The position numbers and the translations under genes are program-made. The notes under the pieces are model-generated. The model saw nothing but the letters and a program-made list of their open reading frames with translations. It was not told the DNA's origin and did not search any database. A DNA stretch of 64,000 bases from Prionailurus viverrinus. Taxonomy: Eukaryota. Positions within the stretch are counted from its first letter, which is position 1. Each line of letters begins with the position of its first letter. Positions 4,261-47,800 of the stretch are shown piece after piece. The DNA lies in contig NC_062576.1 of NCBI RefSeq assembly GCF_022837055.1, forward strand, positions 18,222,144-18,286,143, written 5' to 3'.

Positions 4261-5396
4261 GGCGCCTGCCTGACTCAGTCGGAAGAGCATGTTACTTTTG
4301 ACCTTGGGGTCATGAGTTCAAGCCCCACGTCGAGTGTGGAGATTACTAAAAAAATAAACTTAAAAAAAAAAAAGGTTGAGGGAACACCTGGGTGGCTCAT
4401 TCGGTGAAGCATCTGGCTCTTGATTCGGCTCAGGTCATGATCTCCTGGTTCATGGGTTCAAGCCCCAAGCTTGGGATTCTCTCTCTCCCTCTCCCTCTCC
4501 CCTCCCCCACTTGCTTGCACACACTGTCTCTCTCAAAATATATAAATAAAGTTAAAAAAAGGTTAATATAATAAATTTTGTTACATGTATTTACAACAAT
4601 AAAAAATTTTAAGTCTAAATAAATAAGTAAATAAAATCTGAAAATTATGTATGTTCTGTTTTAATCAGTGATCCCTTAAAAAAACAAAGCACTAAGGGCA
4701 CCTGGCTGGCTCAGTCGGTAGAGCATGTGACTCTTAATCTCAGGGTTGTGAGTTCAAGCCTTATGCTGGGGGTGGAACCTACTAAAATAGAATTTAAATT
4801 TAAAATTTAAACAAAACAAAACACTAGAAGGGTAAACATTATTAAAACCAGGAAGATCCGACATGATGTGGAATCCAAATGGGATGTTTTTGATTCTTAA
4901 CTATCTCTTACCACTTAAAAAATAGCTTAACATTTTTGGAGGGTGCCTGGGTGGCTCAGTTGGTTAGGCATCCAACTCTTGATTTTGGCTCAGGTCATAA
5001 TCTCATGGTTCATGAGCCCCGTATTGGGCTTTGTGCCAACAAGCGGAGCCTGCTTGGGATTCCTTCCTTCACTTCTGCTTAGATCCCCCTGTCCAATCTA
5101 GCCACCAGTATACCTTAACAGTTCTCTGCAGCCAAAGCTCACAGGCCCCATCAGAAGATAAAGGGACCTGGGGTACCTGGGTGGCTTAGTCGCTTGAGCG
5201 TCTGACTTTGGCTCAGGTCGTGATCTCACACTTCGTGAGTTTGAGCCCCGCATCGGGCTCCTCACTGACAGTGTGGAGACTGCTTGGAATTCTCTCTCTC
5301 TGCCCCTCCACCACTTGTTTTCCCTCTCCCTCTCTCTCTCTCTCTCTCTCACTCTCTCTCAAAATAAATAAATAAACTTAAAAAACGAATAAGTAA
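4261..5396 (+). mobile_element. Cluster of five further same-orientation CAN-SINEs (about 4261-4378 short type, 4382-4562, 4697-4806 short type, 4942-5090, 5169-5396)
   Basis: Each begins with a GGGGCNCCTGGNTGGCTCAGT-type head and ends in an A-rich or (CT)n tail. Together with 3992-4212 this gives six head-to-tail SINEs within about 1.4 kb. Confidence 0.85.
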
Positions 5397-6209
5397 AAAA
5401 AGAAGGTAAGGGGACCAGAACGATCTCAAGGAAGCTAAGTATGTGTAGGGGCAACTTCCCACATGGCCACTTGTGAATGGCACATGGGTCCCTTTTCTCT
5501 GCCATGATGCCACTTGGAAAGTCACTGAGGTCCATTCTATACTGAGGCTTTCTGTAGCCAGCATCTGACCCCACACCCTGTGATACATGGCTGCCCACCA
5601 GATGTTCCCAGGAGAAAGGAGGGCCCAAGGGGCTGCTACAATTTTCCCAATTCCTACGCGAAACGGGCCTGCCTGTACAAAGGTTCTTAGTCTGATTCTG
5701 GTGGAGATGGGTGGTCTCAAGAAAATGTTAAGCTTCATCCCCTCCACAACATACTTGGCTGTCACAGCCCCATTCATCACAAGAGTTTTACTACCTCCAT
5801 AGGCAGTTAACCACTGGTGATCCAATTGGAGGATCCACTTGTAGCCTGGGTGCGGGAGACTCATCCCCATCCAAACCCACCCATCTTCTAACACCCCATC
5901 CCAATGCCAAAGGGTATCAACAGGAGCCCAAAGGCATCACTCCACTGCTGTACTTTCTACATGCACAGGACTCAGTGGCCAAACTTCGTTTATTATTATT
6001 TCTATTGAACTTCACATGCTATGAAGTTCACCCAGTACAGTAGTAGTGGGTTTTAATATATTCATAAGATTGCGCAACCATTACCACTATCTAATTTCAG
6101 GACATTTTCATCACCCCAGAAAGAAACCCTGTACCCATTAGTGGTCACTCCCCATTCCCTCCTCCCCCAGACCTTGGCAACACTGTTTTCTTTTTTCAAA
6201 ATATTTCTA

Positions 6210-6412
6210 AGTGTTTATTTTTGAAAGAGAGAGAGAAAGAGAAAGAGAGAGACGGAGCAGGCAAGGGGCAGAGAGAGAGGGAGACAGAGAATCCAAAGCA
6301 GGCTTCACGCTGTCAGCGCAAAGCTGGATGTGGGTCTCCAACCCGTGAGCCACCAGATCATGACCTGAGCTGACGTTGGATGCTCAACTGACTGAGCCAC
6401 CAGGTGCCCCAA
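6210..6412 (-). mobile_element. CAN-SINE, antisense
   Basis: Reverse-complement structure: T-rich start, (GA)n, ...GGAATC..., ending ...GAGCCACCAGGTGCCCC. Confidence 0.85.
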
Positions 6413-6567
6413 CAACTGTCTGTTTTCTGTGTCTATGCATTTGCCTCTTCTGGACATTTCATATAAATGAAATCACATAACCTGCAGCGTTTTGTGCCTG
6501 GCAGCTTTCACTTCACATAATGTTTTCAGGGTTCATCCATGCTTAATGAATCAGTACCTCATTCTTC

Positions 6568-6775
6568 CTTTTTTTTTTTTTTTTTAATGTTTATTTATGT
6601 TGAGAGAGAGACTGTTGGGGGAGATACAAAGAGAGAGGAGAGAGAGAATCCCAAGCAGGCTCCACACTGTCAGCACAGAGCCAGACACGGGCCTCGATCC
6701 CACAAACCATGAGATCATGACCCGAGCTGAAGCCATGAGCCAGGCGTTCAACCAGCTGAGCCACCCAGGCGCCCC
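6568..6775 (-). mobile_element. CAN-SINE, antisense
   Basis: Poly-T at 6568-6585 and ending ...GAGCCACCCAGGCGCCCC. Confidence 0.85.
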
Positions 6776-7563
6776 AGTACTTCATTCTTTTTTTTGTACA
6801 AAAGCTGAATATTTTAGTGTATGGCTATACTACATTTTTATCCATCCATCAGTCGAGGGACACGTGGATTGTTTCTGCTTCTTGGTTATTGCAAGTAATG
6901 CTGCTGTGAACAGTCATGTATAGGTTTTTGTGTGGATATGTTTTCAGTTTCTCTTGGGTCTATAGCTGGGAGTCAGACCTCACAGTCGGATGGCAACACT
7001 GTGTTCACCTTTTTGAGGAAGTGTGGGTGACCAAATTTATAACTGCTGAGTTCATCCACCTCTCCTTACTCTCTGCTCCGGGCCCACCCTCCGACAGCAG
7101 CAACGGTTCCACAACTTCTTCCTGCACCGTGTTGGGTCCACCGTGCACTTGGCTTCTAGGAAACGTGTGGAGGCCACCAACCTCAGGCAAGAGGAGAATC
7201 AACCGTCAACAGGCATGAGGGAAGACAACCCTTCAAGAAGATGGCTGCGGTCCTTCCATGCTCACGCCACCCGTCCTGGCTGAAGCCTAAAGACCTCTTC
7301 TTATGCAATGATACTGTGACCAGAGTTCTAGGTTTTGTGTTTCAAGCTGCCTTCATTCACGCACACCCAACCCTTGTCTCACCCCTGCCTGCGGAGCATG
7401 GTGTGCTCGGATCTTGCCACGCTTCCCTGGCGACAAGAGGGAGTAGCCAGGAACGGTAGGGGAGGAGGGGCAAGTAGAGGAGCTCATGACTTGGGGTCCG
7501 TGTCACAACATGAGCTACAGTCTGAGGTCTCCAAGCAGAATGTCAGTAAAACGTTGCTTTGCA

Positions 7564-7770
7564 GGGGCGCGTGGGTGGCTCAGTGGATTAAGTGTCTGAC
7601 TTCAGCTCAGGTCATGATCTTGTGTTCTGTGAGTTTGAGCCCCATGTTGGGCTCTGTGCTGACAGCTCAGAGCCTGGAGCCTGCTCCAGATTCTGTGTCT
7701 CCCTCTCTCTCTGCCCCTCCCCTGCTCACACTCTGTCTGTCTCAAAAATAGACATTAAAAAAAAAGTTGC
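7564..7770 (+). mobile_element. CAN-SINE
   Basis: GGGGCGCGTGGGTGGCTCAGTGGATTAAGTGTCTGACTTCAGCTCAGGTCATGATC...CTCAAAAATAGACATTAAAAAAAAA. Confidence 0.9.
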
Positions 7771-8622
7771 TTTGCACTTCAGAAGGAGGCTTCAGCGGCT
7801 TCAGTGGATGAAGGAGCATACAGCCAACCTGTCAGCCAACATCTCCTGGCCATACGGAATTAAATCGTGTTCTCTGCTCTTGTGTTCTCTGAAAGGCACA
7901 ACCCCAGGTGGTGAGGAGCAGAGAAGCAGACGGCCTATGACCACATTTTATACTTGGAAACTGAGACTTAGGAGGATTGAGTAGCCCAACCGGGGTGACC
8001 AACCATTCCCATTGTGCCTGGGGCCATCCTTATTTTTATTCACTCACTCATTCATTCATTCATTCATTTTAAAATGTAAGCTCTATGCCCAACATGGGGC
8101 TTGAACTCATGACCCCAAGATCGAGAGCCACATGGTCTACTGATGAACCAGCCAGGCACCCGGGACCATCCTGGTTTTAGCACTTGAAGTTCCACATCCC
8201 AGAAAACACTTTAATTCTGGGTCAACTGAGAAAGTTGGTTGTTGTCATCCAAAGTCACACAACTCAAGTCCCAGAGCTGAATTGGAACCCAGATCTGACC
8301 GTCTCCAACCTCCTGCTGCTGAATGAATGACTTACTGAGCAGGTCAGTCATAAGAAACACCTTCAGAGTTTCAACAGAAAGGTCCAGGCACTTCCGGTTG
8401 TTCTTCCCTTCACCCTCACCCCCTCTGCAGTGGGGTCCACCCTGCTGAGAGTCCCAGCCCTCACCCGGAGCTATCTTGCTGCCAGACAGGGGATAAACAC
8501 AGGGCTGAGCTCAGGAGCTTTTTATCACTGCTCAGGGCCTGCTGGGTGGCACCTACCGGCTGCTCAGGATCCCAAGAGTCAGAGATTCCAACCTTGAGAG
8601 CTGTGAAAAATGATAAGATTGG

Positions 8623-8735
8623 GGGTGCCTGGCTGGCTCAGTCAGAGGAACATGCAAGTCTTGATCTCAGGGTCGTGAGTTCAAGCCCCACGTTGGGTAT
8701 TAGAGATAATTTAAATAAATAAACTTTAAAAAATG
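8623..8735 (+). mobile_element. Short-type carnivore tRNA-derived SINE
   Basis: GGGGTGCCTGGCTGGCTCAGTCAGAGGAACATGCAAGTCTTGATCTCAGGGTCGTGAGTTCAAGCCCCACGTTGGG...AAATAAATAAACTTTAAAAAA. Confidence 0.8.
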
Positions 8736-11026
8736 ATAAGAATGAATTAGAAAGGTCCCAAGTGCCACCTGTGTGGGGAAATCGGGGAAGGTGGAAAGAA
8801 TCTGGGCTTTGGAACCAGGCAGCCCTGGGATTAAATCTGAGGTTCCTGGCTCCACAGCTGTTGAGACCCTTGGCAATCTATTCGATTTCCATTTTTTCAT
8901 GAATTCCCAACTTGAAGGGTTGTTGGAGGGTAATATTAGATAGTTTATATAAAGCACCTCTTAAAGTAGGCATTCAGCACTTCTGTCCCCTTCCATCTTG
9001 GTCTAGCATTGTTGCTCATCTTTGAAAGGCCCTAAAGGATCTGTCCTTTCACATCTGTTCACCCACCTGAAATCTTGTTACCACTCAAGATTGTTCTATA
9101 CCAACCATCAGATTCCCCCGGGCTCTGAGCCTCCCTCCCTCTTCTCCCACTCCACTTCTGGTCCATCCCATTATACTTCTTTTCCTGGAGCCCACATCCT
9201 GGAGTCCCCTCCTGACCAGCCCTACCCAATCTCACTCCACTTCCTCTATAACCTTGACTTTGTGCTGTATTGTTCCAACCACTCTCTTCCTGGCATTTGC
9301 CAGCCTTGTCCCCCCCCCCCCCACACACACACACCTTCCTCATAAAGCTTCTGCCTGGAACCAGTACAACTACTTTCCTTTTGTCCTGTTAACAGGTTGG
9401 TGAGCCACATTGGAGAAAATCACACAACTGACCACGTGTAGTGCCCCCACCTCCACCTGGTCCCTCAGTCATGCTGTCATGTGGATCTGGGCAACGCTCT
9501 CTCTCTATCTCTCCTTTCCCTACTAGCTTTGCCCAACCTCGACTTTAACCATCAGCGCGGATACACTTTCTCTCTCTTGTGCAGAAAGCTGAGGCCTTCA
9601 GGCAGGAGCTCTCTGCCTTGTTCATTCTCAGCCTCTGAGAGTGGGGTTGGCCATGCTCACTCTTGGTTCTGTTCATGGCTTGCCTGGGGATTCTCACTGG
9701 CTTCCTCCAGTCCTGTGGGCCCTGTCTGCCCTGGTACTTTCTTCCCTCAGTGAAGGATGGTGTAGCCCACTTACTTCGTCCTCTGTGCTGATCTTCCTAC
9801 TTTGTTCCAATGTCTCTATTCCTCCTAAGCTACTGCTCCTGGCCAAGGCGCTTCTATGTGCCTAGCAATTTACTAACCCCTCTTCTCTTCTCTTTTCTTC
9901 TCTTCTCTCTCTTTTCTTTTCTTTCCTTATTAAGTAATCTCTATACCCAACATCAGGCTCGAAGTCACAAACCCAGAGATCAAGAGTCAGATGCTTCACC
10001 AACTGAGCCAGCCAAGCACCCCTGAGCACATTGCTATATCTCATTTAATCCTGTAAAGCAACCCTTGAAGTGGATCTTATCCTTCCTTTTGCAATGAGGA
10101 AACTGAGATTCAGAGACTTTAACTTGCCAGGGGAAAGCGGCAAAGCCAGGCCTCAGCCCGCTTCTCTCTTTTCACTGTGCAATTCTGGCATCTGTGACCA
10201 CACTTCCTGGCCACAGCCAGGATCCTTGTCCCCTCCTCTGGGTTTGACTGAATCCCTATGCATCCAGCTATGCTCCTTCCCTGCACTCTGAAGACCAGCT
10301 TGATTAGGTTTGCCCTTCAGGAGAGTGTGAGCCCCTCTGGGGCAGGACACTTCATTTCCACTTTCCCAGGGCCCTCAGTAGGTGCTTTTGATGTTCAGTT
10401 CAAGCTACCTTGGCCTGTGTATCAGTGGTCTCCGGTTACTTGACCATTTTGCCCTTACTCTTTTATAAGATGCGTAGACATGATGAGGTGATGATACCAG
10501 AGAAGACACGTGACATCCTCATAACCTTGATATGATAAGGCCAGAGTTGAGAAGTACTAAAATCAGTACGTCTGGCCTCAGGCGGACACACACCTTTAGT
10601 TTGCCTGCAATATATTCAATTGGGGGGCGGGGGCGGAAAACCAAACCTCACGATGTTAGCAAATGTATGGAAGGCTAGGAAAATGTGATTTAGGTTTACA
10701 ACAAAAACATGAGGGGTATTTAGGAATTTTATGATTTTCTTATTTCCACAGGATGGAGCCACTCCTTAGACGATGAGAAACAGAGAACTTCCTTGGCATC
10801 AGGCAGTGTTCTGGAACTTTACGTCCATTAACTATATCATAACCACAGCAACCTGAGGAGGTAGGCAAAATTATCGCCTTTTTGTTTGTGTGTGTGTTTT
10901 CAGACGAGAACAGAAGCAGAGAGAAGTGAAATACCTTGCCCCAGGCACCCAGCTTCTGAGTCCAGCCCTGTCTGTGCACCTCTCAAACACTCCACCCCGC
11001 GTCTGTCTTAAAAATAAACAACAATA

Positions 11027-11030
11027 TGTG

Positions 11031-11090
<60 letters not shown>
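11027..11090. repeat. Compound microsatellite (TA)n(CA)n(TA)n
   Basis: TGTGTATATATATATATATATACACACACACACACACACACATATATATATATATATATATA. Confidence 0.95.
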
Positions 11091-11289
11091 ACAGGTTTCC
11101 AAGTGACTTTAACTTTAGTTGTCCAAATCAACCTACACAAATATCTTTCTTTGAGGGGTGCTTGGCCGGCCCAGTAGGACAAGCATGTGACTCTTAATCT
11201 CAGGGTCGGGAGTTCAAGCCCCATGATGGGTATGGAGATTACTAAAAAAAAAAAAAAAAGCATAAACTTAAAAAAATTCTTTTTGCAAG

Positions 11290-11988
11290 GGGGCGCCTGG
11301 GTTGCTCAGTCGGTTAAGTGTCTGACTTTGGAGCAGGTCATGATCTCACAGTTTGTGAATTCGAGCCCAAATCAGACTCTGTGCTGATAGTGCGGAGCCT
11401 GCTTCTGATTCTCTGTCTCCCTCTCTCTCTGCCCCTCCTACACTCATTCTCTCTCTCTCTCTCTCAAAAATAAAGAAATAAACATTAAAAAAATTCTTGT
11501 GTCAAGTTGTATGATGCATTTGACAAAGATCTCCAGGATCTGAACTAAGCTAAACCATAAAAATAAAGCTAACTGCAGATGAGAAAGACAAGGCCTGCCC
11601 TCATCAACTTTATCTGAAAGAAATGAAAAAGAAAGACCATATTTTGTGAGAATTGAAGAGAGAGAAAAAAATAAACATTTACTCAGTACTTATGTGTGCT
11701 AGATCTGTGCCAGGGGCTTGACACAAATTGGTTAGACTCATTATCTCCTATCGCAGATGAACAAACTGAAGTTCGAGGATCATGGAGGAAGGGCACGAAC
11801 CAAGCTTTAAGACAAGTCTCTTGCTGGGGTTCCTGGGTGGCTCAGTCGGTTAAGTGTCTGACTTTGGCTCAGATCATGACCTGGGGGTCAGTGAGTTTGA
11901 ACCCCGTGTTGGGCTCTGTGCTGACTGTTCACAGCCTGGAGCCTGCTTCGGATTCTGTGTCCCCCTCGCTCTCTGCCCCTCCCCCACT

Positions 11989-12053
<65 letters not shown>

Positions 12054-12095
12054 TCTTTCAAAAATAAATAAACATTAAAAAAATAAAAATCTTAC
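11290..12095 (+). mobile_element. Two CAN-SINEs (about 11290-11497 and 11826-12095), the second with an (AC)n(CT)n compound tail
   Basis: GGGGGCGCCTGGGTTGCTCAGTCGGTTAAGTG... and GGGGTTCCTGGGTGGCTCAGTCGGTTAAGTG... heads, with typical tails. Confidence 0.85.
11993..12055. repeat. Compound microsatellite (CA)n(CT)n in a SINE tail
   Basis: ACACACACACACACACACACACACACACACTCTCTCTCTCTCTCTCTCTCTCTCC. Confidence 0.95.
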
Positions 12096-12295
12096 CCTTT
12101 GAGAGAGGTAGGTTTTTTTTCAAGGATTTTTTTTTTTAACAGCAGTTCAGAATAGGGAAGAAACTTTTATATTGTGAGTCAGTACATGCAGTATAGAGTA
12201 TTTGACTGAAACAGTATTTTAGGAAATAGTATTTAGTCTTGTTACATGTGATGCTCTTACTTTCTCTATTTCACTTTTCAAATGTGTTGGTCTTG

Positions 12296-12852
12296 GGGCA
12301 CCTGGGTGGCTCGGTTGAGCATCCGATTTGGTTTTGGCTCAGGTCATGATCTCAGGGTTGTGGGATTAAGCCCTGAGTCTGGCTTTGCGCTAAGCATGGA
12401 GCTTGCTTAAGATTCTCTCTCTCCCCCTCTACCCCTCTCCGCGACTCACTCTTTCAAATTAAAAAAAAAAATGTTGGTCTTGGGGCACCTGGCTGTTCTA
12501 GGGGTCATAGGTTCGAGCCCCACGTTGGGTATAGAGATTACCAAAAAAAATAATAAACTTAAAAAATATGTTGGTCTTGAGCCGTTAAAATGATTTTGTG
12601 GTCCACTAGTGAGTTAAGACCTACAGTTTAAAAAGCACTGTCCTGGGGCACCTGGGTGGCTCAGTCGGTTAGGCATCCGACTTCGGCTCAGGTCATGATC
12701 TCACGGTCCGTGAGTTCGAGCTCTGTGCTGATGGCTCGGAGCCTGGAGCCTGTTTCGGATTCTGTGTCTCCCTCTCTCTCTGACCCTCCCCCATTCATGC
12801 TGTCTCTCCCTGTCTCAAAAATAAATAAACATTAAAAAATTTTTTTAAAAAA
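12296..12852 (+). mobile_element. Three CAN-SINEs (about 12296-12478, 12482-12570 truncated short type, 12646-12852)
   Basis: Canonical heads and A-rich tails. Confidence 0.85.
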
Positions 12853-12949
12853 TAAATAAAAAGCACTGTCCTTGAGGATTTTGGTTGATCTTGAGTCCTT
12901 TAACTTCTCATGTTCCAAATGCAGAAATATAGACTCAAAGAAATAGTGA

Positions 12950-13143
12950 CTTCTGTTTTTTAAAAATATTTATTTTTGAGAGAGACAGCATGCATACAAG
13001 TGGGGGATGGCAGAGAAACAGAAAGGGAGATACAGAATCCAAAGCAGGCTCCAGGCTCTGAACTGTCAGCACAAAGCCCGATGCGGCGCTTGACCACACG
13101 AGCGGTGAGATCATGAACTCAGCCGATGAAGTCAGATGCTCAA
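12950..13143 (-). mobile_element. CAN-SINE, antisense, at the boundary of the ZG16-containing duplicon
   Basis: TTTTTGAGAGAGACAGC...GAATCCAAAGCAGGCTCCAGGCTCTGAACTGTCAGCACAAAGCCCGATG...CATCTGGGCGCCCC. Confidence 0.85.
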
Positions 13144-14668
13144 CCACCTGAACCATCTGGGCGCCCCTGAGCTGCCATCTTTGATATCCAGTGTTTGGTT
13201 CCATCCTGTGGGATATACTCCTCATAAGGAAGACGAAAGACAGACAGTAGTAAGAGGAGACAGAGGAGAGAATTAGAGAGAGAGCTTGGGGGAGGAGAAG
13301 AGACAGAGAGAAGAGGCAAAAGGAAAAAGGTATGGAGACAGTGAATACAAAGAACAACCCTTAGAGCAGGAGATGATGGGGAAAGATCAAGACAAACAGA
13401 AAGAGAGAAGTAGGAAAGAAAGAAAACCAGAGAGAACAAGAGAGACAGAACAAAACAGCTGGAATGAGGAAGTAATCTCACCAGGACTTGCTTGTTTTGA
13501 ACTTGAAGCAGAGATCAGACAATGCAACCCTGGCTGCCCTCCTTGCTCCCAGAATCTCCAGGCCAAGAGCCCTGTCCTATTTCCGGCTCCTTAGGTTGGG
13601 GTTCCCTGGCTTTCCTGGGAGGAGTCCTCAGTCCTAGATGGTCTATGAGGGGTGGATATTCTGTTTGTCCAGCTACTAGTCATTAATCACCAAGGCTAAT
13701 GACTCCAGCTTTTCCCTGGGCTCCACCCATCTCTCTGCTTGGGAGGGCCCGCTGACTCAAAGAGCCAATCCTAGAGGAGTCAAGAAGTAGGACTCAGGAG
13801 TCCATCCTAGAGACTTGGGTGGAAGAGAAGAGCCTCAGAAGAGAAGAAATCTATGACATCAAGCTAACCTATGGGAAGGAGCTGTTGCCCCGTGTGGGCT
13901 TTATCCCCCAGAAGATTCAGCCATGGCTCCCAGGAGCCCTGAGGGCCTTGAGACCAGAACTTCCCCCAAGGGAGGAACCGTGTACCGTTACTTCCTCAGC
14001 GTCCCACATGCCTATTGGCCTGACTGCCTGTCTCTCAGGAGGGAGATCGACAGGTGTTAGTTGTCCACCTGCAGCAACACATTACCCTTCTCAGAAAAGT
14101 TTTGTAAACAGTCTGGCAGATTGAGGATGGATAGATGGGGGAAAAAAAGCCAAGTACGGCAAAATATTAACCATGGTAGAATCTATGTGGTGTGCATATG
14201 AGTGTTCACTGTACATTTCTTTCAATTTTTCTCTATGTTTGGATTTTTTTCATATAAAATAACAGGAAAGAGGAAGAAAAAAATTGTATGGAAAATAGTA
14301 GACACTCCTAAGTACAGGGCATAGGGTGTATCATCCCTTCCCATGAGAGTTTAGATTTCAAATGTAGGACAATGAGGACAATGTTTCTCCTGAAAGATGA
14401 CAGATTGCAGGTAGGAGCACCTGTAGAACACCCAAATAGGGGGGCGACAACCTTAGACTACACCCAGAAGAAATTAGTAACTTTGGCCACCCAAAGCTGC
14501 TGGCTCTTCCGTTGGTGACTGTTTCCTCAAGTTTATTCTGTCCATCCTGATACCTGGGCCTTGGCCCAGAGAGGACACCACTCTGACAACTGACCCCACG
14601 AGGCTGATCATGTTTGCTCAGGAGGTGAAGTTCACACGATAAAGAGCAGGGGGAGGGCTTGGACCTGA

Positions 14669-15606: not shown

Positions 15607-15661
15607 ATGTTGACCATTACTCTTCTTGCCCTTGTCTGCGCATCAGCCTCAGCCAATGTCA
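15607..15661 (+). CDS. ZG16: ZG16 copy 1 coding exon 1: signal peptide MLTITLLALVCASASANV plus 1 nt; donor GTAAGT at 15662
   Basis: ATG at 15607 preceded by acceptor ...CCTCCAG at 15599. Translation matches the zymogen granule protein 16 N-terminus (human MLTVALLALLCASASGNA from memory). Phase-1 donor. Confidence 0.85.
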
Positions 15662-21640: not shown

Positions 21641-21689
21641 ATCCATATGTCTACTATTTTTTTAATTTTTAAATTTTTATATAATCTCC

Positions 21690-24810: not shown

Positions 24811-24824
<14 letters not shown>

Positions 24825-32268: not shown

Positions 32269-32299
32269 TTAGTCATTCTTCAAAAAAAAAAAACCACTC

Positions 32300-34314: not shown

Positions 34315-34359
<45 letters not shown>

Positions 34360-37650: not shown

Positions 37651-38144
37651 ACAAGTGGCCTCTACAGCAGGGAGTGGAGGGACCCTCTTTGCAGCTTAGT
37701 GAGGTCACTTCTCTCTCAAGACTTTACTTTCTTCACGGGAACCATGAAGGGTGAACAGAAAAGCACTGTTCACATTTGCTTTTGTGGTAAAACCCTTTGT
37801 TCAAATGAAACCACCATCTACCCAAGGCGTAAATGAGGAGACAGAGAATATTTTTTTCTTAACAGGAAAGAGATCTGCTATCATTTGGAAATACATTTTG
37901 AAAAATCAGTGATGGGAGTCAAGGGGCAGATTCTCCCCCCTGGGGTGTGAATTTGCACCAGGATTTAAGAGGCTTTGTCTGAGAGAGGAAATAGTGCTCT
38001 GAGCAGGGGCCCCTTGAGACAAGGGTTGGGGGGTATGAGAGCTCACACTGTTCCTGCCTCCTGAGGTGGGCTCCCCCTCCCCCTTCCCCTCCACACACCC
38101 TCATTCCCCACCCTGTCCATTCTCCACTTTTAAGAGTGGAACGA

Positions 38145-38369
38145 GGGGCGCCTGGGTAGCGCAGTCGGTTAAGCATCCGACTTCAGCCAGGTCACGATCT
38201 CGCGGTCCGTGAGTTCGAGCCCCGCGTCGGGCTCTGGGCTGATGGCTCAGAGCCTGGAGCCTGTTTCCGATTCTGTGTCTCCCTCTCTCTGCCCCTCCCC
38301 CGTTCATGCTCTGTCTCTCTCTGTCTCAAAAATAAATAAACGTTAAAAAAAATAAATAAAAAAAAAAAA
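38145..38369 (+). mobile_element. Young CAN-SINE (CpG-intact), flanked by an AAGAGTGGA direct repeat; near-identical to the copies at 32056 and 60631
   Basis: GGGGCGCCTGGGTAGCGCAGTCGGTTAAGCATCCGACTTCAGCCAGGTCACGATCTCGCGGTCCGTGAGTTCGAGCCCCGCGTCGGGCTCTGGGCTGATGGCTCAGAGCCTGGAGCCTGTTTCCGATTCTG... Confidence 0.85.
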
Positions 38370-39424
38370 GAGTGGAGAAACCACTCGGTGGCTTCCCTCA
38401 CCTTCAGGAGGAATCCAAACTCCTGACCACAGCCTCCCAGGCCCTGTACTACCTGCCCGGCGGCTGCTGCCCACACCTCCCCTCCCGCTGGCAGCCACAC
38501 TTCCCAGCAGCCACCCTGCCCTCCCGCACACTGTTCCGCACACTTCCTGCTCAGGGTTTGCGTACCGTTCCCTCACCAGGTCCAGTCTTCTCCCAAACGT
38601 CTGTAGTCTCTCCATCACTTTGGTGAGGTCTTCACAAATGTTACCCGTGGAGAGGGGGGCCTCCCAGGCAGAGAGACAGCTTTCCCAGCCCTTCTCCTGG
38701 TTCACTCTGCCTCATTTCCTCCTGGCCTGGCCCATGGGAACGAGTTGTTCAATTGTCCGACCCCCCACCCTGCAGTGAAAGCTCCAGCACTACGATTTGA
38801 CCCTTCCTCTGTGACTGTCTGTCCAGCATCTAGGACGGTTCCTCCAACATACAGATGCTGCATAAATGTGCTGAGTGAGTCGCTTTGCCAAGGGGCAGGG
38901 AAGACAGCAAGAGAATGAGTGTCAGCTGCCCTGCCATAGCAGAAAGCTTGGGGAGGTTTTGGACTTCGCAGCCTTGGGACTGGGCAGGGATGACCTTCAC
39001 TGCCTGTAGGACTGGGGAAGGTCGGCCCCCAGGGGACACATGGGCAAAATGTGACAAGTTCAAATGGGAGCAATGGAACTGGACCTGATGGCATACCAAC
39101 ATTAGCTGCACAGTGGTCTAGCTGGTCTCTGGGACCCACAGGCGATGAGCCCTGAGACCCCTGCCACTGGAATAAAGTCCTCTCTTTACACTCTGGAGAG
39201 GAGATGGAGGGCCTGCTGGGGGGAACCAGGGACCAGTCTATGGGCATCGGGGAGACTCTGACTCTCTGCATAGGTGGGGCCAGTGCATCAGAGTGAACCT
39301 ATGACAAGTGTGATGGTCTCCCCCTGAGGGTCCCAGATGTGTCATGTATGGAAATATGAGGGTATTTTCCTAAGGCATTCACTGCAGACCTCTCTGGGCT
39401 ACCATATTTTTTTTCTTAATCTTT

Positions 39425-39610
39425 TATTTATGTTTAGAGAGAGAGAGAGAGAGAGAGAGAGTGAGTGGGGAAGGGGCGGGGGGTGGAAACAGAATCTGAA
39501 GTAGGCTCCAGGCTCTGAGCCATCAGCAGAGCCCGATGCAGCTCTCGAACCCACGAGTGGTGAGATCACTATTGGTCCAATTCTTAACCAACTCAGTCAC
39601 CTGGATGCCC
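39425..39610 (-). mobile_element. CAN-SINE, antisense; right flank of the copy-B-specific block and start of the ZG16 duplicon
   Basis: (GA)n...GAATCTGAAGTAGGCTCCAGGCTCTGAGCCATCAGCAGAGCCCGATGCAGCTCTCGAACCCACGAGTGGTGAGATCAC...CTGGATGCCCC. Confidence 0.85.
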
Positions 39611-41182
39611 CTGAGCTGCCATCTTTGATATCCAGTGTTTGGTTCCATCCTGTGGGATATACTCCTCATAAGGAAGAGGAAAGACAGACAATAGTGAGAG
39701 AAGACAGAGGAAAGATTTAGAGAGAGAGCTTGGAGGAGGAGAAGAGACAAAGAGAAGAGGCAGAAGGAAAAAGGGATGGAGACAGTGAATACAAAGAACC
39801 CTTAGAGCAGGAGATGATGGGGAAAGATCAAGACAAACGGAAAGAGAGAAGTAGGAAAGAAAGAAAACCAGAGAGGACAAGAGAGACAAAACAAAACAGA
39901 TGAATGAGGAAGTTATCTCACCAGGACATGCTTGTTTTGAACTTGAAGCAGAGATCAGACAATGCAACCCTGGCTGCCCTCTTTGCTCTCGGAATCTCCA
40001 GACCAAGAGCCCTGTCCTATTTCTGGCTCCTTAGGTTGGGGTTCCCTGGCTTTCCTGGGAGGAGTCCTCAGTCCTAGATGGTCTATGAGGGGTGGATATT
40101 CTGTTTGTCCAGCTACTAGTCATTAATCACCAAGGCTAATGACTCCAGCTCTTCCCTGGGCTCCATCCATCTCTCTGCTTGGGAGGGCCCGCTGACTCAG
40201 AGGGTCAAAGAGCCAGTCCTAAAGGGGTCAGGAAGTAGGACTCAGGAGTCCGTCTAGAGACTCCGGTGGAACAGAAGGGCCTCGGAAGAGAAGAAATCTA
40301 TGACACGAATCTAAGGCCTATGGGAAGGAGCTGTTGCCCCGTGTGGGCTTTATCCTCCAGAAGATTCAGTCATGGCTCCCAGGAGCCCCGAGGGCCTTGA
40401 GACCAGAATTTCCCCCAAGGGAGGAACCATGTACCGTTACTTCCTCAGCGTCTCACATGCCTATTGGCCTGACTGCCTGTCTCCCAGGCGGGAGATTGAC
40501 AGGTGTTCGTTGTCCACCAGCAGCAACACGTTACCCTTCTCAGAAAAGTTTTGTAAACAGTCTGGCAGATTGAGGATGGATAGATGGGGGGGAGGGGGGG
40601 GCAGAAAAAGGCAAGTACAGCAAAGTATTAACCATGGTAGAATCTATGTGGTGTGTATATGAGTGTTCACTGTATAATTCTTTAAATATTTCCTATGTTT
40701 GAATTTGTTTTTTTCATATAAAATAACCGGGATGAGAAGGAAAAAAATTGTCTGGAAAATAGTAGACACTCCTAAGTACAGAGTGTTGGGTGTATCATCC
40801 CTTCCCAGAAGAATCTAGATTTCAAATGCAGGACAGTGAGGACAAGGTTTCTCCTGAAAGATGACAGATTGCAGGTAGGAGCACCTGCAGAACACCCAAA
40901 TAGGGGGGTGACAACCTTAGACTACATCCAGAAGCACTTAGCTACTTTGCCCACCAAAAGCTGCTGGCCCTTGGGTTGGTGACCTTTTCTCAAGTTTATT
41001 CTGCCCATCCTGAGATCTGGGCCTTGGCCCAGATTGGACCCCACCCTGCCACATGAAACTCTTGGGGGGAGAGCAGGATATGGTATTCCAGACCTTGCCT
41101 GACCACTGACCCTAGAGGCTGAGCATGTTTGCTCAGGTGGTGAGGCCACACGATAAAGAGAAGGCAGAGGGCTTGGACCTGG

Positions 41183-42163: not shown

Positions 42164-42218
42164 ATGTTGACCATTGCTCTTCTTGCCCTTGTCTGTGCAT
42201 CAGCCTCAGCCAATGCCA
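42164..42218 (+). CDS. ZG16 paralogue (copy 2) coding exon 1: MLTIALLALVCASASANA plus 1 nt; donor GTAAGT at 42219
   Basis: ATG at 42164 preceded by acceptor CCCTTCCAG at 42148-42156. It is 2 aa different from copy 1. Confidence 0.8.
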
Positions 42219-42402
42219 GTAAGTGAGAGGCCAGGAGCCCAGTATTAATGTCATGGGAAGACAGCTTCCTGCTCTGCCGGTGGCCAAGGCTTGCAGGGGC
42301 TGGCTTGGGGTGGTGGGCGTCGAGTTGTGGGAGGTGTAGGAGTGGTGAGGAGGGACTGGAGCTCTTGAGCTCTCTCCTTCTGACGCCTACTGTCCCCTCC
42401 AG

Positions 42403-42535
42403 TTCAGGCTAGGTCCTCCTCCTACAATGGAGAGTATGGAGGCGATGGAGGTGAGCAATTCTCCCATTCTGGTTACCAGCTGGAGGGCCCCATCACTGCC
42501 ATCCGGGTCCGCATCGACAACAACTACATCATAGG
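42403..42535 (+). CDS. ZG16 paralogue coding exon 2: (I)QARSSSYNGEYGGDGGEQFSHSGYQLEGPITAIRVRIDNNYII(G)
   Basis: Same splice signals as copy 1. It is 133 nt with about 12 nt differences, 8 of them non-synonymous. These include G to D inside the Gly-rich GG loop and RVNRYY to RIDNNY. Confidence 0.8.
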
Positions 42536-43207
42536 GTAAGATTCTTTGTGTGTCTGTGGTTTGGGGGTCATCTCCGATCCTACCACACTGGAAAGTTCTC
42601 AGTCACTTTGGGTCACATCTGTTTCAGTCAACAAGTCCCAGGGACAACTTGGGATGTGAAAGGTATCAGGAGGCTGGGGTCTGAGGCCGGTGCTGCTACA
42701 GCCCTACAGTCCCCAGCGTGCACGTCTTGGGCAAATCTGTAGCACAGCCACTGAGGCGCTGGGAAGCTGGCTACTTTGGCCCCACCTGAGGTGTAGGTCC
42801 CCTCGGGCATCCTCCATCTTGGCTGACACCTCTCCCCAAAACATGTATCCTTCTGATCCTGGGGCAACAGAGTCTCTTCCCTCATGAAAGCCATCCAGAA
42901 AGGCCCATCTGCTTCTTCCACGTAGGGGTTGGGGGCACAACCGGAACCTAGATTTCAAAGTGAAGCTCTACCACTGTCTGGGGGGCTCCGGCCAAGTTAC
43001 TTTTCCTCTCTGAGCCTATCTGTTGGCAAAAGGAGTTGAAGTTCACAGTGGGACCTCAAGGGCTCCCTCATCCCTCACACACCTTGGGACTGGCAGGGGA
43101 CCTGTCATCTCTGCCACCAGTTTGCAGGTCTCTCGGCTTGTAGGCCAAGAGGTCCTGAATTCCAGTCACCCTGCTCAGTCTTCCCTCCCTCACCAGCCCC
43201 CACCCAG

Positions 43208-43511
43208 CCTCCAGGTGCGCTATGGCAAGGTATGGAGCGACTATGTGGGTGGCACCCAGGGAGACCTGGAGGAGATTTTCCTGCACCCCGGGGAGTCAGT
43301 GATCCAGGTGTCTGGCAAGTACGACTACTACCTGAGGAAGCTCGTCTTCGTGACTGACAAGGGCCGGTACCTGCCTTTTGGGACAGACATAGGCAGGAGT
43401 TTCAGTGCTGTCCCCTTGTACCACAACACCGTACTACGATTCATTAGTGGTCGCGCTGGCACCCTCATCAATGCCATAAGCCTGCACTGGGACTTATACC
43501 GCAGGTATTGA
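43208..43511 (+). CDS. ZG16 paralogue coding exon 3, ending ...HWDLYRRY with stop TGA at 43509-43511; four codons shorter than copy 1 and lacking both C-terminal Cys
   Basis: ORF track 43023..43511. Translation LQVRYGKVWSDYVGGTQGDLEEIFLHPGESVIQVSGKYDYYLRKLVFVTDKGRYLPFGTDIGRSFSAVPLYHNTVLRFISGRAGTLINAISLHWDLYRRY. The splice acceptor is intact. The premature stop arises by substitution (GACTGTGGC to TATTGAACC), not a frameshift. Confidence 0.8.
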
Positions 43512-44728: not shown

Positions 44729-44749
44729 AGAGAGGGAGGGAGGGAGAGA

Positions 44750-44797
<48 letters not shown>

Positions 44798-44806
44798 CCC
44801 AAGCAG
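44729..44806. repeat. (GGGAGA)n/(GA)n expansion within an antisense SINE; not expanded in the paralogous SINE at about 18230
   Basis: GAGAGAGGGAGGGAGGGAGAGAGAGGGAGAGAGAGAGAGAGAG...(GA)n, about 75 bp, versus GGGGCAAAGAGAAGAGAGACAGAGACAGAGAGAATCC in copy A. Confidence 0.9.
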
Positions 44807-47800
44807 CCTCCACACTCAGTGCGGAGCACAAAGCGGGGCTCGATCTCACAAAGTGTGAGATCATAACCTCAGCTGAAATCCAGAGTCAGCCAGCCATCCG
44901 GGTGCCCCAATATTTGACCTTTTAAAGCGTGCCATTTCCGTCGTTTTTAGTATTCACGGATTGTGCAACCATGACCACTAATGCCAGAATTTCGTCATCA
45001 GCTCAGAAAGAAATCCCATCCCCATTAAGCAGTCGCTCCCCATTCCTCTCCCCCAGCCCCTCGTAACCACCCATCTACTTTCTGTCTCTATGGATTTCCC
45101 TGTTCCAGGCATTTCATGTAGATGGAATCGTCCAGTAGTGTGGTCTTTTGTGTCTGGCTTCTCCCATTTAGCGTATTTTCAAGGTTCATCCACGTGGTAG
45201 CACGTGTCAGGACTTCGTTCCCTTGTGCGGCTGAATCTGACACATCAGATACCTGGTCAACTTCAGGATCAGCTTTGCACCAGCGGGTCTCACCCTCGGC
45301 CAGTGAAGTCACTGGCACCTGACAGGCAGCTGCCGCAGAAGAGGACGAAGTCATGGGATTCCCGGCTTTTGTGTAGTTGACATATTAGGCTTTTGTAAAA
45401 GATTTTATGTAAAGAAAATTTTCCTTTCCTTATAAAGTTCTAAAACTACTAAATTGAGCTAATCATACGTTTATCAAATGCTCTCTGCTAGGTGCTTGGG
45501 AATACAACGACCACTGAAGATTTCTTTTCCTCTAGTCAAAGGGAAGACTTGGTGAAGGAAGGGGTGTGTGTGTGTGTGAGCGTATGCATGTGCATGTGTG
45601 ATAGGGGCACAGTACTGGGCTATGCAGTATCAGCCTATGCAGAAATATGAACACATTAAAATGACAATTGCACAGTTAAAATGCAAAGTTCTACTGGGTA
45701 AAGATGAAGCCTCATGGAATGGCAGGGACCATGCATGTCATGCTAAACTGTTGAAACTTTATTTTATGGGCTACAAGAAGCCAATGAACCAAGATTTTGC
45801 TCAGGGGATTGGTAAGATTTATACGAAAATCATCTTTCCTTGTATAAGTGGGGAAAATGGATTGAAGGTGAAGCAGGATGAGATAATAGTTAAGAGACTA
45901 GGTCTAGATCAGAAATGATGGATGTCTGAACAAAGGCAGTGATGTGAGGGAAAAAAGAGAGGGAGGAATTTGAGAGATTCGAGGGGGAGGGGAGACTTAG
46001 AAGAACTTGATAAAAGAACCCATGAAGGTGAGTCAAAGAGGAGAGTCTAGAAGAACTATCATGTCTAGTATGGGCAACTGGGAAGAGAGAGATTCTTTCT
46101 AAGATGAGGACTACAGAAGAAGAAATTAGCTTTTGGACCTGTTGCATTTTTAAATAATATTTATTTTGAGAGGGAGGAAGAGAGAGAAAGAGAGCAAGAG
46201 AGTGGAGTAGCAGGGAAGTGAGAGAGAGAGAATCCCAAGCAGGGTCCGTGCCTCTAGTGCAGAGCTTTATGCAAGGCTCGATCTCACAAACCTGAGATCA
46301 TGACCCGAGCCGAAATCAAGAGTCAGACGCTTAACTGACTGAGCCAGACAGCTGCCCCAAGGACCTGTTGCATTTTGACATATCTGTGGCACATCCTGAT
46401 GGAGACCCAACATTACACAGAGGACTATTTAGCAATAAAGGCTCGGATACAGCTTTCAGGTAAGCCTTAGATTCAGGAGTCACAAGCACAGAGACAATGG
46501 ACTTCCAGTGATGGATATGTGGAAGAAGTCACGTAGGAAAACTGTGGGCATATAAAATGAGAAGAAGGCTGGCGTCAGAGGATTGGAGAATACCAAAGAG
46601 GAATTGGTTAGAGAAAAGAGACGGGAGGGGCCGGGGAGGGAACGCACTCAGGGGCAAGAGAGAAATTTCATGGAGCTGTTACTGCCATCTAAGCAAGAAA
46701 AAGAACGACTTGAGATTCTTTGCCTTTGGCAATCAGAAGGTCACGAATAATCCCGAAAGAGCTTCGGGGGATTGGGGGAAGCTGAAACCAGGCTGCAGTT
46801 GGCTAAGGAATGAATGGGAAATGAGGAAATACAGGCAGCAAGACTTGAATATTCCAAGATGTCTGGCTCCAGAAAGCCAGAAAATAGGCTAGTCACAGTT
46901 ATGGGAGATGTAAGGAAAGAGAGATTGGGTTTTTTTCCTAGACAGGGGAGACGTGAGCATGTTTATATGACAAAGAAGGAGTCAGAGGGAGGAAGAGGCT
47001 GAGGATTCAGGAAAGAGGAGGGAACTGATGGAACGAGGTCTCGCAGGAGATTGGGGAGGATGTGTTACGTAGCTGTTGGGGCAGGAAACCTTAAGAAAGA
47101 AGAAAATGAAGATGAGTGAAGGTACAGGTTAGTTTGTAGAGGGAGTGGGTATGGAGCAAACCTTGAGGGAATTAATACCCAACCTTGACTTGTTCGGTTG
47201 CATAAGTAAACCTGCCTGTTGTATGAGTCACATTCTTCCAGAGGAAAACCAGCAGGAGACATACGTACATATATACATAAAGAGTTTTTTTTTTTATGTT
47301 TTTATTTATTTAAATGCTTTATTTTTGTGAGAGAAGGAGAAAGAGCACAAGAGGAGGAGGGGCAGAGAGAGAGAGAGAGAGAGAGGAAGACAGAATCCGA
47401 AGCAGGCTCCAGCTGTCAGCACAGAGCCCACTCAGGGCTTGAACTTGTGAACCGCAACATCATGACGTGAGCTGAAGTCGGACGCTTAACCAACTGAGCC
47501 ACCCAGGTTCCCCTTTAAGATTTTATTTTTATTTATTTATTTACATTTTTAACACTTATTTATTTTGAAAGGGGTGGGGCAGAAAGAGGGAGACAGAATC
47601 CATATCAGGCTGCAGGCTCTGAGCTGTCAGCACAGAGCGGGACTTGGGGCTTGAACTCATGAACCGCGAGATCGTGACCTGAGCAGAAGTTGTACACTTA
47701 GCCACTGAGCCACCCAGGTGCCCTTAAGATTTTATTTTTAAGTCATCTCTACCCCCAGTGTGGAGCTTGAACTCACCACCCCAAGATCAAGAGTTGCCTG

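Follow-up and report, generated by a model that had tools for sequence, protein, structure and literature searches.

Two head-to-tail ZG16 copies in a felid: hybrid SINE at the duplication junction, copy-specific block losses and gene conversion tracts

Gene content and architecture of the locus

The window, i.e. the whole stretch of 64,000 nucleotides that was analysed, contains the C16orf54–ZG16–KIF22 locus of a felid, in which the gut lectin gene ZG16 is present in two head-to-tail copies. In a self-comparison of the window, 4470-21235 (copy A) aligned to 31835-47725 (copy B), showing that the duplication is real. The true duplicated unit is about 26 kb long and comprises S1, S2, Y, C16orf54, L and the ZG16 region. 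Its genes and the elements shared by or specific to the copies are as follows:

1546..2220 (-), C16orf54 homologue, single-exon open reading frame of 224 aa, part of the first copy of the unit
15607..16966 (+), ZG16 copy A, protein of 167 aa with a jacalin lectin domain, encoded by exons 15607-15661, 15846-15978 and 16651-16966
42164..43511 (+), ZG16 copy B, protein of 163 aa with a jacalin domain, encoded by exons 42164-42218, 42403-42535 and 43208-43511
3991..4560 (+), tRNA-derived SINE cluster where A/B homology ends on the left, members 3991-4194, 4255-4368 (short) and 4387-4560
4678..5759 (+), left shared segment of copy A, paired with B 32283-33341 at 96% identity excluding gaps
10749..12955 (+), middle island of copy A, flanked by the two large heterologies, paired with B 33342-35717
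12645..12865 (+), A-only SINE inserted after the duplication, target-site duplication (TSD) AAAAAGCACTGTCCT
32056..32282 (+), young B-only SINE, 96% identical to its consensus, TSD ATTAGTCATTCTTC, not in Panthera
38145-38369, second young B-only SINE, inside the B-only block

The C16orf54 protein (Pfam PF15755) was 99% identical to that of Puma and was matched exactly in Prionailurus and Lynx assemblies; copy 2 has no C16orf54 counterpart. ZG16 copy A differed from the bear protein at 6 aa, with a dN/dS of 0.05. For copy B, which has a shortened and divergent C-terminus, dN/dS was 0.16 against bear and 0.43 against A. Among proteins already in the databases are an A-type one from Panthera tigris ('ZG16-like', with 98% identity to A) and B-type ones from Felis catus and Panthera uncia. 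No published description of this ZG16 duplication or of its structure was found in the literature.

The locus was compared with those of polar bear, panda, dog, hyena, meerkat and other felids including Panthera. The bear locus is single-copy, has the order C16orf54-ZG16-KIF22, and contains homologues of both copy-specific blocks. Each cat copy has therefore lost one block. A reading made previously from the sequence alone (the sequence-only reading) had described A and B as collinear except for these two blocks. Both blocks are real, but collinearity is also broken by further SINEs, by several indels of 100-300 bp within 11010-12500 and by a 28-bp gap in the edge SINE. The middle island was only 83-91% identical to its B counterpart, with many small indels, and B 33685-33950 and 34923-35352, ancestral according to bear, are partly absent from A. 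The SINE cluster at A 3991-4560 is the counterpart of B 31452-31934; bear has the equivalent of 4255-4466 and lacks the SINE 3991-4194. Neither block is a rearranged copy of sequence in the other duplicate, as self-comparison gave no non-repeat homology there; matches elsewhere were confined to SINEs and an L1 fragment (37046-37604) matching the large L1 described below.

Origin of the copy-specific blocks

The following elements define the two blocks:

5760..10748 (+), A-only block, 4,989 bp, ancestral and lost from copy B according to junction strings and outgroups
33341..33342 (+), 5-kb deletion junction in copy B, blunt, …CCTGGC/CAGGATGG…
about 35929-39611, B-only block of roughly 3.7 kb with antisense SINEs B1 and B2 on either side
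35929..39405 (+), inner part of the B-only block, ancestral and deleted from copy A, plus later insertions
36956-37604 (-), 5'-truncated L1 in the B-only block, later insertion, TSD GTGGCCCTTTTCT
35718..35928 (-), SINE B1, intact TSD TAGTGACTTTTT at 35706-35717 and 35929-35940
39406..39611 (-), SINE B2, TSD TGAGCTGCCAT, perfect in hyena and 9/11 in cat
12956..13167 (-), chimeric SINE of copy A, product of B1 x B2 recombination and scar of the 3.7-kb deletion

The A-only block of about 5 kb claimed by the sequence-only reading was confirmed, with the junction strings at the places given for them: in B, CCACAACATACCTGGC and CAGGATGGAGCCTCTCC at 33326 and 33342, respectively, and in A, CCACAACATACTTGGCT and GATGGAGCCACTCC at 5744 and 10752. 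The uninterrupted junction of the state without the block reads CCACAACATAC…CAGGATGG. Bear aligned to 7807-10748 and ran contiguously into 10749 onward, and panda aligned to 8045-9652. The deletion junction was common to cat B, Panthera B and one meerkat contig, i.e. to every feliform sequence covering the site. In A, the surroundings of the left breakpoint are free of SINEs out to about 370 bp and those of the right one out to about 540 bp. The difference is a deletion from copy B with a blunt, non-homologous junction and without a repeat.

The B-only block and its two antisense SINEs were likewise found as described. Bear aligned to 35930-36585, 37669-37999 and 38390-38966 of the block and has empty sites for both SINEs, while hyena aligned to B at 35713-36953 and 37605-39360 and retains the block together with B1 and B2. 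The truncated L1 and the young SINE at 38145-38369 were absent in bear and hyena. The lone antisense SINE reported for copy A is present, although its right end, given as 13143, had been placed 24 bp short. When sites agreeing with only B1 or only B2 were counted in this SINE, the B1:B2 ratios were 29:1 in the left flank, 24:4 in the tail half, 22:20 in the head half (ambiguous) and 0:17 in the right flank (Fisher p = 5e-10). The flanking sequences of this SINE, TAGTGACTTCTG and TGAGCTGCCAT, differ from each other and form no TSD pair. The element thus has the left flank and tail of B1 and the right flank of B2, the mark of a deletion by recombination between two SINEs. Of the two directions that had been left open for this recombination, the outgroups show a deletion from A and not an insertion into B.

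The segment between the copies belongs to the duplicated unit

The sequence between the copies contains these elements:

21234..22976 (+), S1, first part of the supposed spacer and actual start of duplicated unit 2
22977..31451 (+), S2, in two pieces (22977-23197 and 29950-31451) split by an L1
23198..29935 (+), full-length but defective L1 of 6.7 kb inserted into S2
23184-23197 and 29936-29949, 14-bp TSD AAAAACTTCCTTTC of this L1
31452..31934 (+), SINE cluster at the S2/copy B boundary, scar of the Y-C16orf54-L loss from unit 2

The spacer had been taken to hold a full-length L1 with a TSD. Both are present (ORF1 with the RBD-like domain PF02994; ORF2 fragmented), but the non-L1 part belongs to the duplicated unit. 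S1 was 86% identical to S1' (3234-4599 of L008, window orientation), which lies 3.8-5.2 kb left of the window start, and a paralogue of S1 lies left of C16orf54 in four felids; in the dog locus, a short match to S1 was located at the left end. Sequences beyond C16orf54 in bear (2501-5000) and dog (3222-4958) aligned to 22977-23196 and 29936-31489, and hyena aligned to 30154-31159 of S2. The S1' and S2 matches were single hits per locus. The segment 21234-31451 without the L1 is duplicated unit and not an unrelated spacer, and the duplicon boundaries proposed earlier are not supported, as the paralogue of S1 lies left of the window and S2 is homologous to sequence beyond C16orf54. The L1 insertion was also found in Panthera (with an internal gap of 2.9 kb there) and was absent in hyena.

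The left 'edge' at about 4380/31720 is the scar of a later deletion that took the second C16orf54 copy. In dog and bear, a short SINE and then a second SINE follow directly after S2 in the same orientation, and this loss may have been mediated by SINEs. B 31452-31659 resembled A 3991-4194 no more than it resembled unrelated SINEs. In felid copy 1 most of S2 is missing and a 250-bp piece of it is inverted, with GGCTTTGG microhomology at the join, so that an extra rearrangement must be assumed.

The duplication junction

Three SINEs are relevant to the breakpoint of the duplication:

21012..21233 (start approximate) (-), junction SINE J, hybrid with a tail side from Q and a head side from P, true tandem-duplication junction
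47532..47723 (start approximate) (-), SINE Q, right-hand parental SINE, flanked on either side by its TSD TTAAGATTTTATTTTTA
about 5.2 kb left of the window, minus orientation, SINE P, the other parental SINE

P and S1' were read from other felids (Prionailurus, Puma and Lynx) because both lie outside the window. The left flank of J is that of Q, including the TSD of Q, and its right flank is that of P. Counted as Q-type:P-type sites, the left flank gave 13:4, the head 4:13 and the right flank 3:28. Internally the tail was P-like (18 sites versus 9), which was attributed to the loss of about 28 bp from Q and weakens the internal chimera test. SINE Q is absent in bear, where the equivalents of B 46133 and 47761 are spaced within about 94 bp. 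Hyena has the identical J-S1-S2 arrangement with the same flanks in gap-free sequence, and shares J-specific substitutions with cat J.

The duplication was created by repeat-mediated unequal crossing-over, as had been suggested, although not between the edge SINEs pointed to. Those SINEs have opposite orientations (A 4387-4560, plus; A 21070-21233, minus), which makes a tandem duplication by their recombination impossible. The observation that all edges fall in SINEs holds for the high-identity edges, but the left one is not a duplication breakpoint and the junction of the 5-kb block is blunt. One single crossover event probably sufficed.

Age of the duplication and gene conversion

As hyena has the same J junction, the duplication is old, dating back at least to the split between cats and hyenas. 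The A/B identity of 94% would then reflect gene conversion: A and B were 0.944 identical, versus 0.858 for A-hyena and 0.859 for B-hyena, with hyena equally near to both. S1, S1' and hyena S1 were equidistant (0.856-0.860 identity). Across the duplicon, A/B identity ranged from 0.76 to 1.00, with minima at the tract edges (J vs Q 0.76; left SINE cluster 0.82-0.84). Lineage-specific conversion tracts were observed directly. In the window lineage A and B were 99-100% identical at 19969-20768, and in Panthera they were 99.7% identical at 17969-18368, a stretch in which identity between the B orthologues is only 93.6%. The high A/B identity hence appears to be secondary and due to interlocus gene conversion, as judged from only four sequences. 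In both felids, A and B differ by 9-11% in the 3' half of exon 3 and in the 3' flank, for which selection or chance may be responsible. Neither the old age of the duplication nor the secondary nature of the identity had been noticed in the sequence-only reading.

Snow leopard (Panthera) has both deletions and the L1. The meerkat locus consists of six contigs in doubtful order; one joins ZG16 to S2, one the 5-kb-deletion junction to L, and another the ZG16 region to L. The hyena ZG16 copy preceding J-S1-S2, i.e. where copy A lies in the cat, is of B type in both its coding sequence and its stop codon. A simple duplication model does not predict this, and it counts against the explanation preferred here.

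Discussion

The history that we consider likely is an old SINE x SINE tandem duplication followed by erosion, later insertions and gene conversion. Unequal crossing-over between the minus-oriented CAN-type SINEs P and Q in an early feliform ancestor would have produced the hybrid J. Unit 2 would then have lost Y-C16orf54-L, with both breakpoints within same-orientation SINEs, and the 5-kb upstream block through the blunt, non-homologous junction, while unit 1 would have lost 2.8-3.7 kb of the sequence upstream of ZG16, with B1 x B2 recombination leaving the lone chimeric SINE. This order of the deletions is the one we infer, except that the 3.7-kb loss, given the block kept in hyena, is certainly the later event. 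The L1 and several SINEs would have been inserted into either copy afterwards, and repeated gene conversion would have homogenised long collinear tracts, chiefly the 8 kb around ZG16, so that the copies are about 94% identical despite their age.

Two duplicons of about 17 kb, an unrelated 10.5-kb spacer and crossing-over at the edge SINEs, with block (ii) gained or lost in either direction, would account for the end of high-identity homology in SINEs on both sides and for a self-comparison of the window alone that shows no paralogue of the spacer. This is highly improbable, however, because the non-L1 spacer has paralogues or orthologues on the left of C16orf54, block (ii) is ancestral per bear and hyena, and the left-edge SINE is in plus and the right-edge SINE in minus orientation; crossing-over between inverted repeats inverts the sequence between them and does not duplicate it in tandem. 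A young, felid-specific duplication without conversion, dated by the 5-6% A/B divergence and with the hyena and meerkat arrangements independent or artefactual, is also quite unlikely. Throughout the ZG16 region, hyena is indeed more distant from both A and B than these are from each other, the meerkat locus is visibly mis-scaffolded, and the hyena assembly is at scaffold level. Nevertheless, the hyena J described above argues against it, as do the uneven identity along the duplicon and the separate near-identical A/B tracts of Panthera and the window species where orthologues differ more. In addition, hyena and felid B share the B-type stop codon and coding substitutions, with a dS of 0.107 for hyena–Panthera B versus 0.16-0.17 for hyena–A.

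Construction of unit 2 without the 5-kb block and C16orf54 in one replicative rearrangement (FoSTeS/MMBIR template switching) would fit the blunt, repeat-free 5-kb junction, its presence in all feliform sequences covering it, and the microhomology at the inverted S2 fragment of felid copy 1. We consider it unlikely, since J resembles a plain SINE x SINE crossover and the 3.7-kb loss came later. Moreover, the meerkat contig with the 5-kb junction keeps L sequence to its left, so that block loss and L loss are separable. Under the preferred history of duplication and erosion, the locus is a clear yet ordinary case of mammalian gene-duplicate decay, and the type of event is ordinary.

Comparison with known systems

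A chimeric element without a TSD pair is the hallmark of Alu recombination-mediated deletions (Han et al. 2007, PMC2041999). As in those, a same-orientation SINE pair flanked the segment before the deletion, a lone chimeric element without a TSD pair remains, and an outgroup keeps the pre-deletion state; the 3.7 kb lost here are inside the reported range of 111-31,861 bp (PMC2041999). Unlike Alu, the elements are carnivore tRNA-derived SINEs, and the event occurred in one tandem paralogue, with the other serving as an internal record of the ancestral state. Tandem segmental duplications by SINE/Alu-mediated NAHR share the direct-orientation repeats at the unit ends, the hybrid repeat at the head-to-tail junction and the single-copy outgroups. 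In contrast to the usual cases, the parental SINEs, with a length of about 200 bp, are short and today share only about 76-80% identity, one of the two is located beyond the window, and each copy of the unit is by now missing about a third of its content. The patchy identity, the lineage-specific near-identical tracts, the within-species paralogues closer than the duplication age allows and the drop of identity at tract edges and beside large heterologies resemble concerted evolution in young tandem gene pairs, such as globin or opsin duplicates, except that conversion at ZG16 is deduced from those four sequences. The NCBI annotations of felid ZG16 and ZG16-like contain the same A-type and B-type pair and do not state the origin of the copies.

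Gene content of the window

The window carries C16orf54 and two copies of ZG16:

1546-2220, minus strand: C16orf54, intact 224-aa ORF, 99% identity to the Puma protein
15607-16966: ZG16 copy A, three exons, jacalin lectin; PF01419, 75 bits
42164-43511: ZG16 copy B, three exons, jacalin lectin; PF01419, 69 bits

The exact sequence of the C16orf54 protein was found in Prionailurus and Lynx assemblies. Both ZG16 copies have a jacalin-like domain, three coding exons and synteny with C16orf54 and KIF22. The polar bear ZG16 and C16orf54 loci, stitched to 38.9 kb, were used as a reference for the single-copy state; they contain one ZG16, with KIF22 called 9.7 kb downstream, and the dog agrees over the left half. 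Positions ~54620-55957 of the window matched the KIF22 end of the bear locus. Together with C16orf54 and the two ZG16 copies, this match identifies the window as the felid C16orf54-ZG16-KIF22 interval. Among the assemblies compared, that of Prionailurus was nearest to the window (99.0% identity over 12 kb).

Comparison of the two copies

The sequence-only reading had described a direct duplication in which each copy holds one block that is missing from the other. Self-BLAST agreed, aligning copy A (4470-21235) with copy B (31835-47725). The A-only block was located at 5760-10748 (4,989 bp), and all four junction strings quoted for it were found in their places. The B-only block (~35929-39611) is flanked by two minus-strand SINEs, B1 (35718-35928) and B2 (39406-39611), and copy A has a single minus-strand SINE (12956-13167) at the corresponding junction. 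Neither block is homologous to the other copy, the only self-BLAST matches being SINEs and an L1 fragment. The observation of a mosaic duplication was thus confirmed, with the restriction that the collinearity of A and B is also interrupted by several indels of smaller size and by SINE insertions specific to one copy. The copies were compared by BLAST chains; a global MAFFT alignment forced unrelated blocks together at 40-50% 'identity' and was discarded.

Bear sequence matched A-only positions 7807-10748 and continued unbroken into 10749 and onward. Further on it matched three stretches of the B-only block (35930-36585, 37669-37999 and 38390-38966), followed by the ZG16 region common to both copies. 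The giant panda match to the A-only block (8045-9652) was in agreement with the bear. In the hyena copy the B-only block was complete and both SINEs were present; the target-site duplication (TSD) of B2 was perfect in this species. From these matches both blocks are ancestral, and one was lost from each cat copy.

Loss of the 3.7-kb block from copy A

A SINE-SINE recombination had been suggested for the B-only block, with the direction left open. This suggestion was borne out by a chimeric SINE in copy A, and the direction was deletion from A, as bear and hyena carry the block. The copy-A SINE was aligned with B1 and B2, and the sites at which it matches only one of the two were counted.

Sites at which the copy-A SINE and its flanks match only B1 or only B2
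Region: B1-only; B2-only
Left flank: 29; 1
Tail half: 24; 4
Head half: 22; 20
Right flank: 0; 17

The two halves of the element including their flanks differed significantly (Fisher's exact test, p = 5e-10), and the switch from B1 to B2 lies near 13072-13082. The mixed counts in the head half stem from an 11-bp deletion and other changes that the cat B2 has since undergone; its ancestral form is preserved in the hyena B2. The flanks are decisive for the chimera. The left flank is TAGTGACTTCTG, the TSD of B1, the right flank is TGAGCTGCCAT, the TSD of B2, and the copy-A SINE has no matching TSD. B1 and B2 share the minus orientation and also bracket the intact block in hyena. The undeleted state was found in hyena with both SINEs and in bear with clean empty sites for them. 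All four features of an ARMD-type event were therefore present, namely a same-orientation pair, a chimeric element, no matching TSD and an undeleted outgroup, and the loss from copy A is a SINE-SINE recombination deletion. The ancestral segment lost from A was ~2.8 kb, and two elements were later additions to copy B:

36956-37604: 5'-truncated L1 with TSD GTGGCCCTTTTCT
38145-38369: young SINE

A consensus of the young SINEs was built from four copies with TSDs, and it is probably that of the feline CAN-SINE. CAN-SINEs have a tRNA-related head, a CT-rich middle and an A/T-rich tail, and are flanked by a TSD. The SINEs at 57102-57313 (minus strand) and 60638-60843 (plus strand) had 98-99% identity to the consensus and clear TSDs. 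They indicate very recent insertion and an active SINE family in this species. Rfam gave only three tRNA-like matches (29-45 bits), at 4700-4772 (plus), 32305-32377 (plus) and 8086-8157 (minus), of which the first two are at paralogous positions in A and B. These are not obvious tRNA genes; each is the head of a short SINE (~100 bp) from a family found repeatedly across the locus and distinct from the young consensus type.

Loss of the 5-kb block from copy B

The junction in copy B is blunt, with …CCTGGC joined directly to CAGGATGG…, and no microhomology was visible there. SINE-bounded breakpoints had also been proposed for this block and were not found, the nearest SINE being more than ~370 bp from the left and more than ~540 bp from the right breakpoint. 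An insertion into copy A, for example of an LTR element, was considered and rejected, as the block has no terminal repeats or TSD and its sequence is present in bear and panda. The left breakpoint adjoins …CCACAACATAC. No bear homologue of A 4900-7800 was detectable in the stitched locus, and therefore the right breakpoint is the only one spanned by an outgroup. The dog locus ends ~90 bp short of the 5-kb junction and so cannot show the ancestral state there. Copy B of the snow leopard (Panthera) has the identical deletion junction, and a meerkat contig has it too (CCACAACATACCTGGACAGAATGGAGCC). As the junction is common to both, the loss of the block is old.

Within the A-only block, positions 8136-8900 had 84-87% identity between cat and bear, compared with 70-80% in neighbouring non-coding sequence. 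The segment may be a conserved regulatory element located upstream of ZG16 and missing from copy B through the deletion.

Extent and origin of the duplicated unit

Repeat-mediated unequal crossing-over had been proposed as the origin of the duplication. This holds in general, but not for the SINEs that had been named as duplicon edges. The elements at 4387-4560 (plus) and 21070-21233 (minus) are mutually inverted and could not give a tandem duplication. The left edge and the extent of the unit had likewise been misplaced, and the 'spacer' is not unrelated sequence between the duplicons, since its non-L1 part belongs to the duplicated unit. This part comprises S1 and S2. A paralogue of 21066-22565, S1', lies in felid sequence left of the window (L007-L010), 3.8-5.2 kb before its start, with 86% identity (gaps excluded). 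S2 (22977-23197 and 29950-31451) has its dog and bear matches beyond C16orf54, and a short match to S1 lies at the very left end of the dog locus. The ancestral order is S1-S2-Y-C16orf54-L-ZG16 region-KIF22, where Y and L are the segments on either side of C16orf54, and in the cat the unit would have been present twice.

Two copies were found of S1, of the ZG16 region and of the left segment. The right unit (unit 2, with copy B) has no C16orf54, Y or L, and the left unit (unit 1, with copy A) lacks most of S2, so that the model requires later deletions. A meerkat contig in which L lies beside the 5-kb junction is compatible with duplication of the whole unit followed by such deletions.

The junction SINE, J (21012-21233), was compared with P (L008, felid sequence left of the window, 3039-3233 in window orientation, before S1') and Q (47532-47723), both minus-oriented and at unit ends. 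The left flank of J is of Q type (13:4) and includes a copy of the 17-bp TSD of Q; the right flank (28:3) and the head (13:4) are of P type. Comparison of the tail was confounded by a deletion in Q. Such a hybrid is expected from unequal crossing-over between P and Q.

At the left edge of copy B, S2 abuts a plus-strand SINE cluster (31452-31934) that aligns to A 3991-4560. In dog and bear a short SINE and then a second SINE follow directly after S2 in the same orientation. On the simplest reading, a second SINE-SINE deletion would have removed Y-C16orf54-L from unit 2. The SINEs at 3991-4194 (A) and 31452-31659 (B) were rejected as a proven recombination pair, as their similarity of 75-82% is no better than that of unrelated SINEs (85% for 7564-7743 versus 31452-31628).

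The region in which most of S2 is missing from felid unit 1 was found at L008 4732-5077 (window orientation; ~3.4-3.7 kb before window position 1). A 250-bp piece of S2 (equivalent to window 31154-31387) is inverted there and lies 63 bp inside the adjoining segment. Microhomology of GGCTTTGG marks the join, and the structure is a small deletion-inversion scar.

The full-length L1 with TSD described in the 'spacer' was recovered at 23198-29935 (6,738 bp, 14-bp TSD, ORF1 domain PF02994). Its ORF2 is in pieces and the element is thus defective. The snow leopard copy (L011, ~21450) is without ~2.9 kb of ORF2 sequence found in the window at 26803-29673, the cause being either an internal deletion specific to that lineage or a gap in the assembly. 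Hyena (L002 18187-21356) and meerkat (L014 18501-21750) share a minus-strand L1 just after S2 (~window 31160) that felids do not have and that could be a marker for a hyena-mongoose clade.

Age of the duplication and probable gene conversion

The hyena has the J-S1-S2 arrangement of the cat in gap-free sequence, and a meerkat contig joins ZG16 to S2. S1, S1' and hyena S1 are mutually equidistant (0.856-0.860 identity), which dates the duplication to the cat-hyena split or shortly before it. In the ZG16 region the identity of A and B is 0.944; hyena is equally close to both (0.858 each).

Candidate conversion tracts, specific to one lineage, were located in a five-way alignment that included snow leopard. 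At 19969-20768 window A and B are 0.993-1.000 identical, compared with 0.970-0.975 for window A and Panthera A. At 17969-18368 Panthera A and B are 0.997 identical, compared with 0.936 for window B and Panthera B. The lowest A/B identities were at the ends of the homology (0.76 for J versus Q, 0.82-0.84 in the left SINE cluster), and the 2.2-kb island that separates the two large heterologies had values in between (0.83-0.91). Given an old duplication and lineage-specific tracts, the high A/B identity is secondary. It appears from the alignments to come from interlocus gene conversion that has acted repeatedly wherever long stretches of collinear homology are retained.

The meerkat locus (L014) consists of six contigs separated by 100-N gaps, among them 2679-9407, 9508-11711 and 11812-17540, of doubtful order and orientation, and is too fragmented for ordering its copies. 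One contig joins the 5-kb-deletion junction to L (window 3567-3973), which is absent from cat copy B; another joins position 20266 of the ZG16 region to L position 2625. A different deletion of ~3.8 kb (B 34824 to 38624) was also observed in meerkat.

The ZG16 genes

ZG16-A differs from the bear protein at 6 amino acids (dN/dS 0.05) and ZG16-B at 18 (dN/dS 0.16); dN/dS between A and B is 0.43. The ORF of ZG16-B is intact (163 aa) and ends in a shortened C-terminus that contains no Cys (…LHWDLYRRY-stop). By these comparisons ZG16-A is the conserved orthologue, and ZG16-B, intact in both felids, is yet evolving faster. The hyena copy (L002 10001-11370) has the B-type stop codon and several B-type substitutions, although it is placed like cat copy A, before J-S1-S2; this could be due to additional copies, to unequal crossing-over or to conversion in the lineage of the hyena. 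It is a tentative and rather unlikely proposition that ZG16-B, far from decaying, is an old, feliform-wide and functionally distinct secretory lectin. On this view, selection would have preserved its differences from ZG16-A in exon 3 and at the C-terminus (loss of the Cys-containing tail, changes around the FGxD and NAVP motifs) over tens of millions of years, even though conversion was pervasive in the 8 kb around them.

In giant panda (L003 10001-13078) part of ZG16 has undergone a separate, small tandem duplication (period ~1.5 kb), and two jacalin genes were called there, 137 bp apart, the first truncated C-terminally by the junction. Polar bear does not have this duplication.

Significance and comparison with known events

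No paper describing a ZG16 duplication in felids was found in a literature search. For feline genomics, felids have a conserved ZG16 and in addition a faster-evolving, intact ZG16 paralogue. The locus also warns that ~94% paralogue identity and duplicon edges taken from a single genome mislead on the age and extent of a segmental duplication: the true unit is ~50% longer than the apparent one, and the duplication goes back at least to the split between cats and hyenas.

All events at the locus belong to well-known classes and no new mechanism is involved; it is a compact example of a locus shaped by SINE-mediated duplication, by deletions both SINE-mediated and non-homologous, and by gene conversion. 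A chimeric element without matching TSD is a criterion for Alu recombination-mediated deletions (PMC2041999). The scar in copy A has the same signature as these deletions, and its deletion size is within their range.
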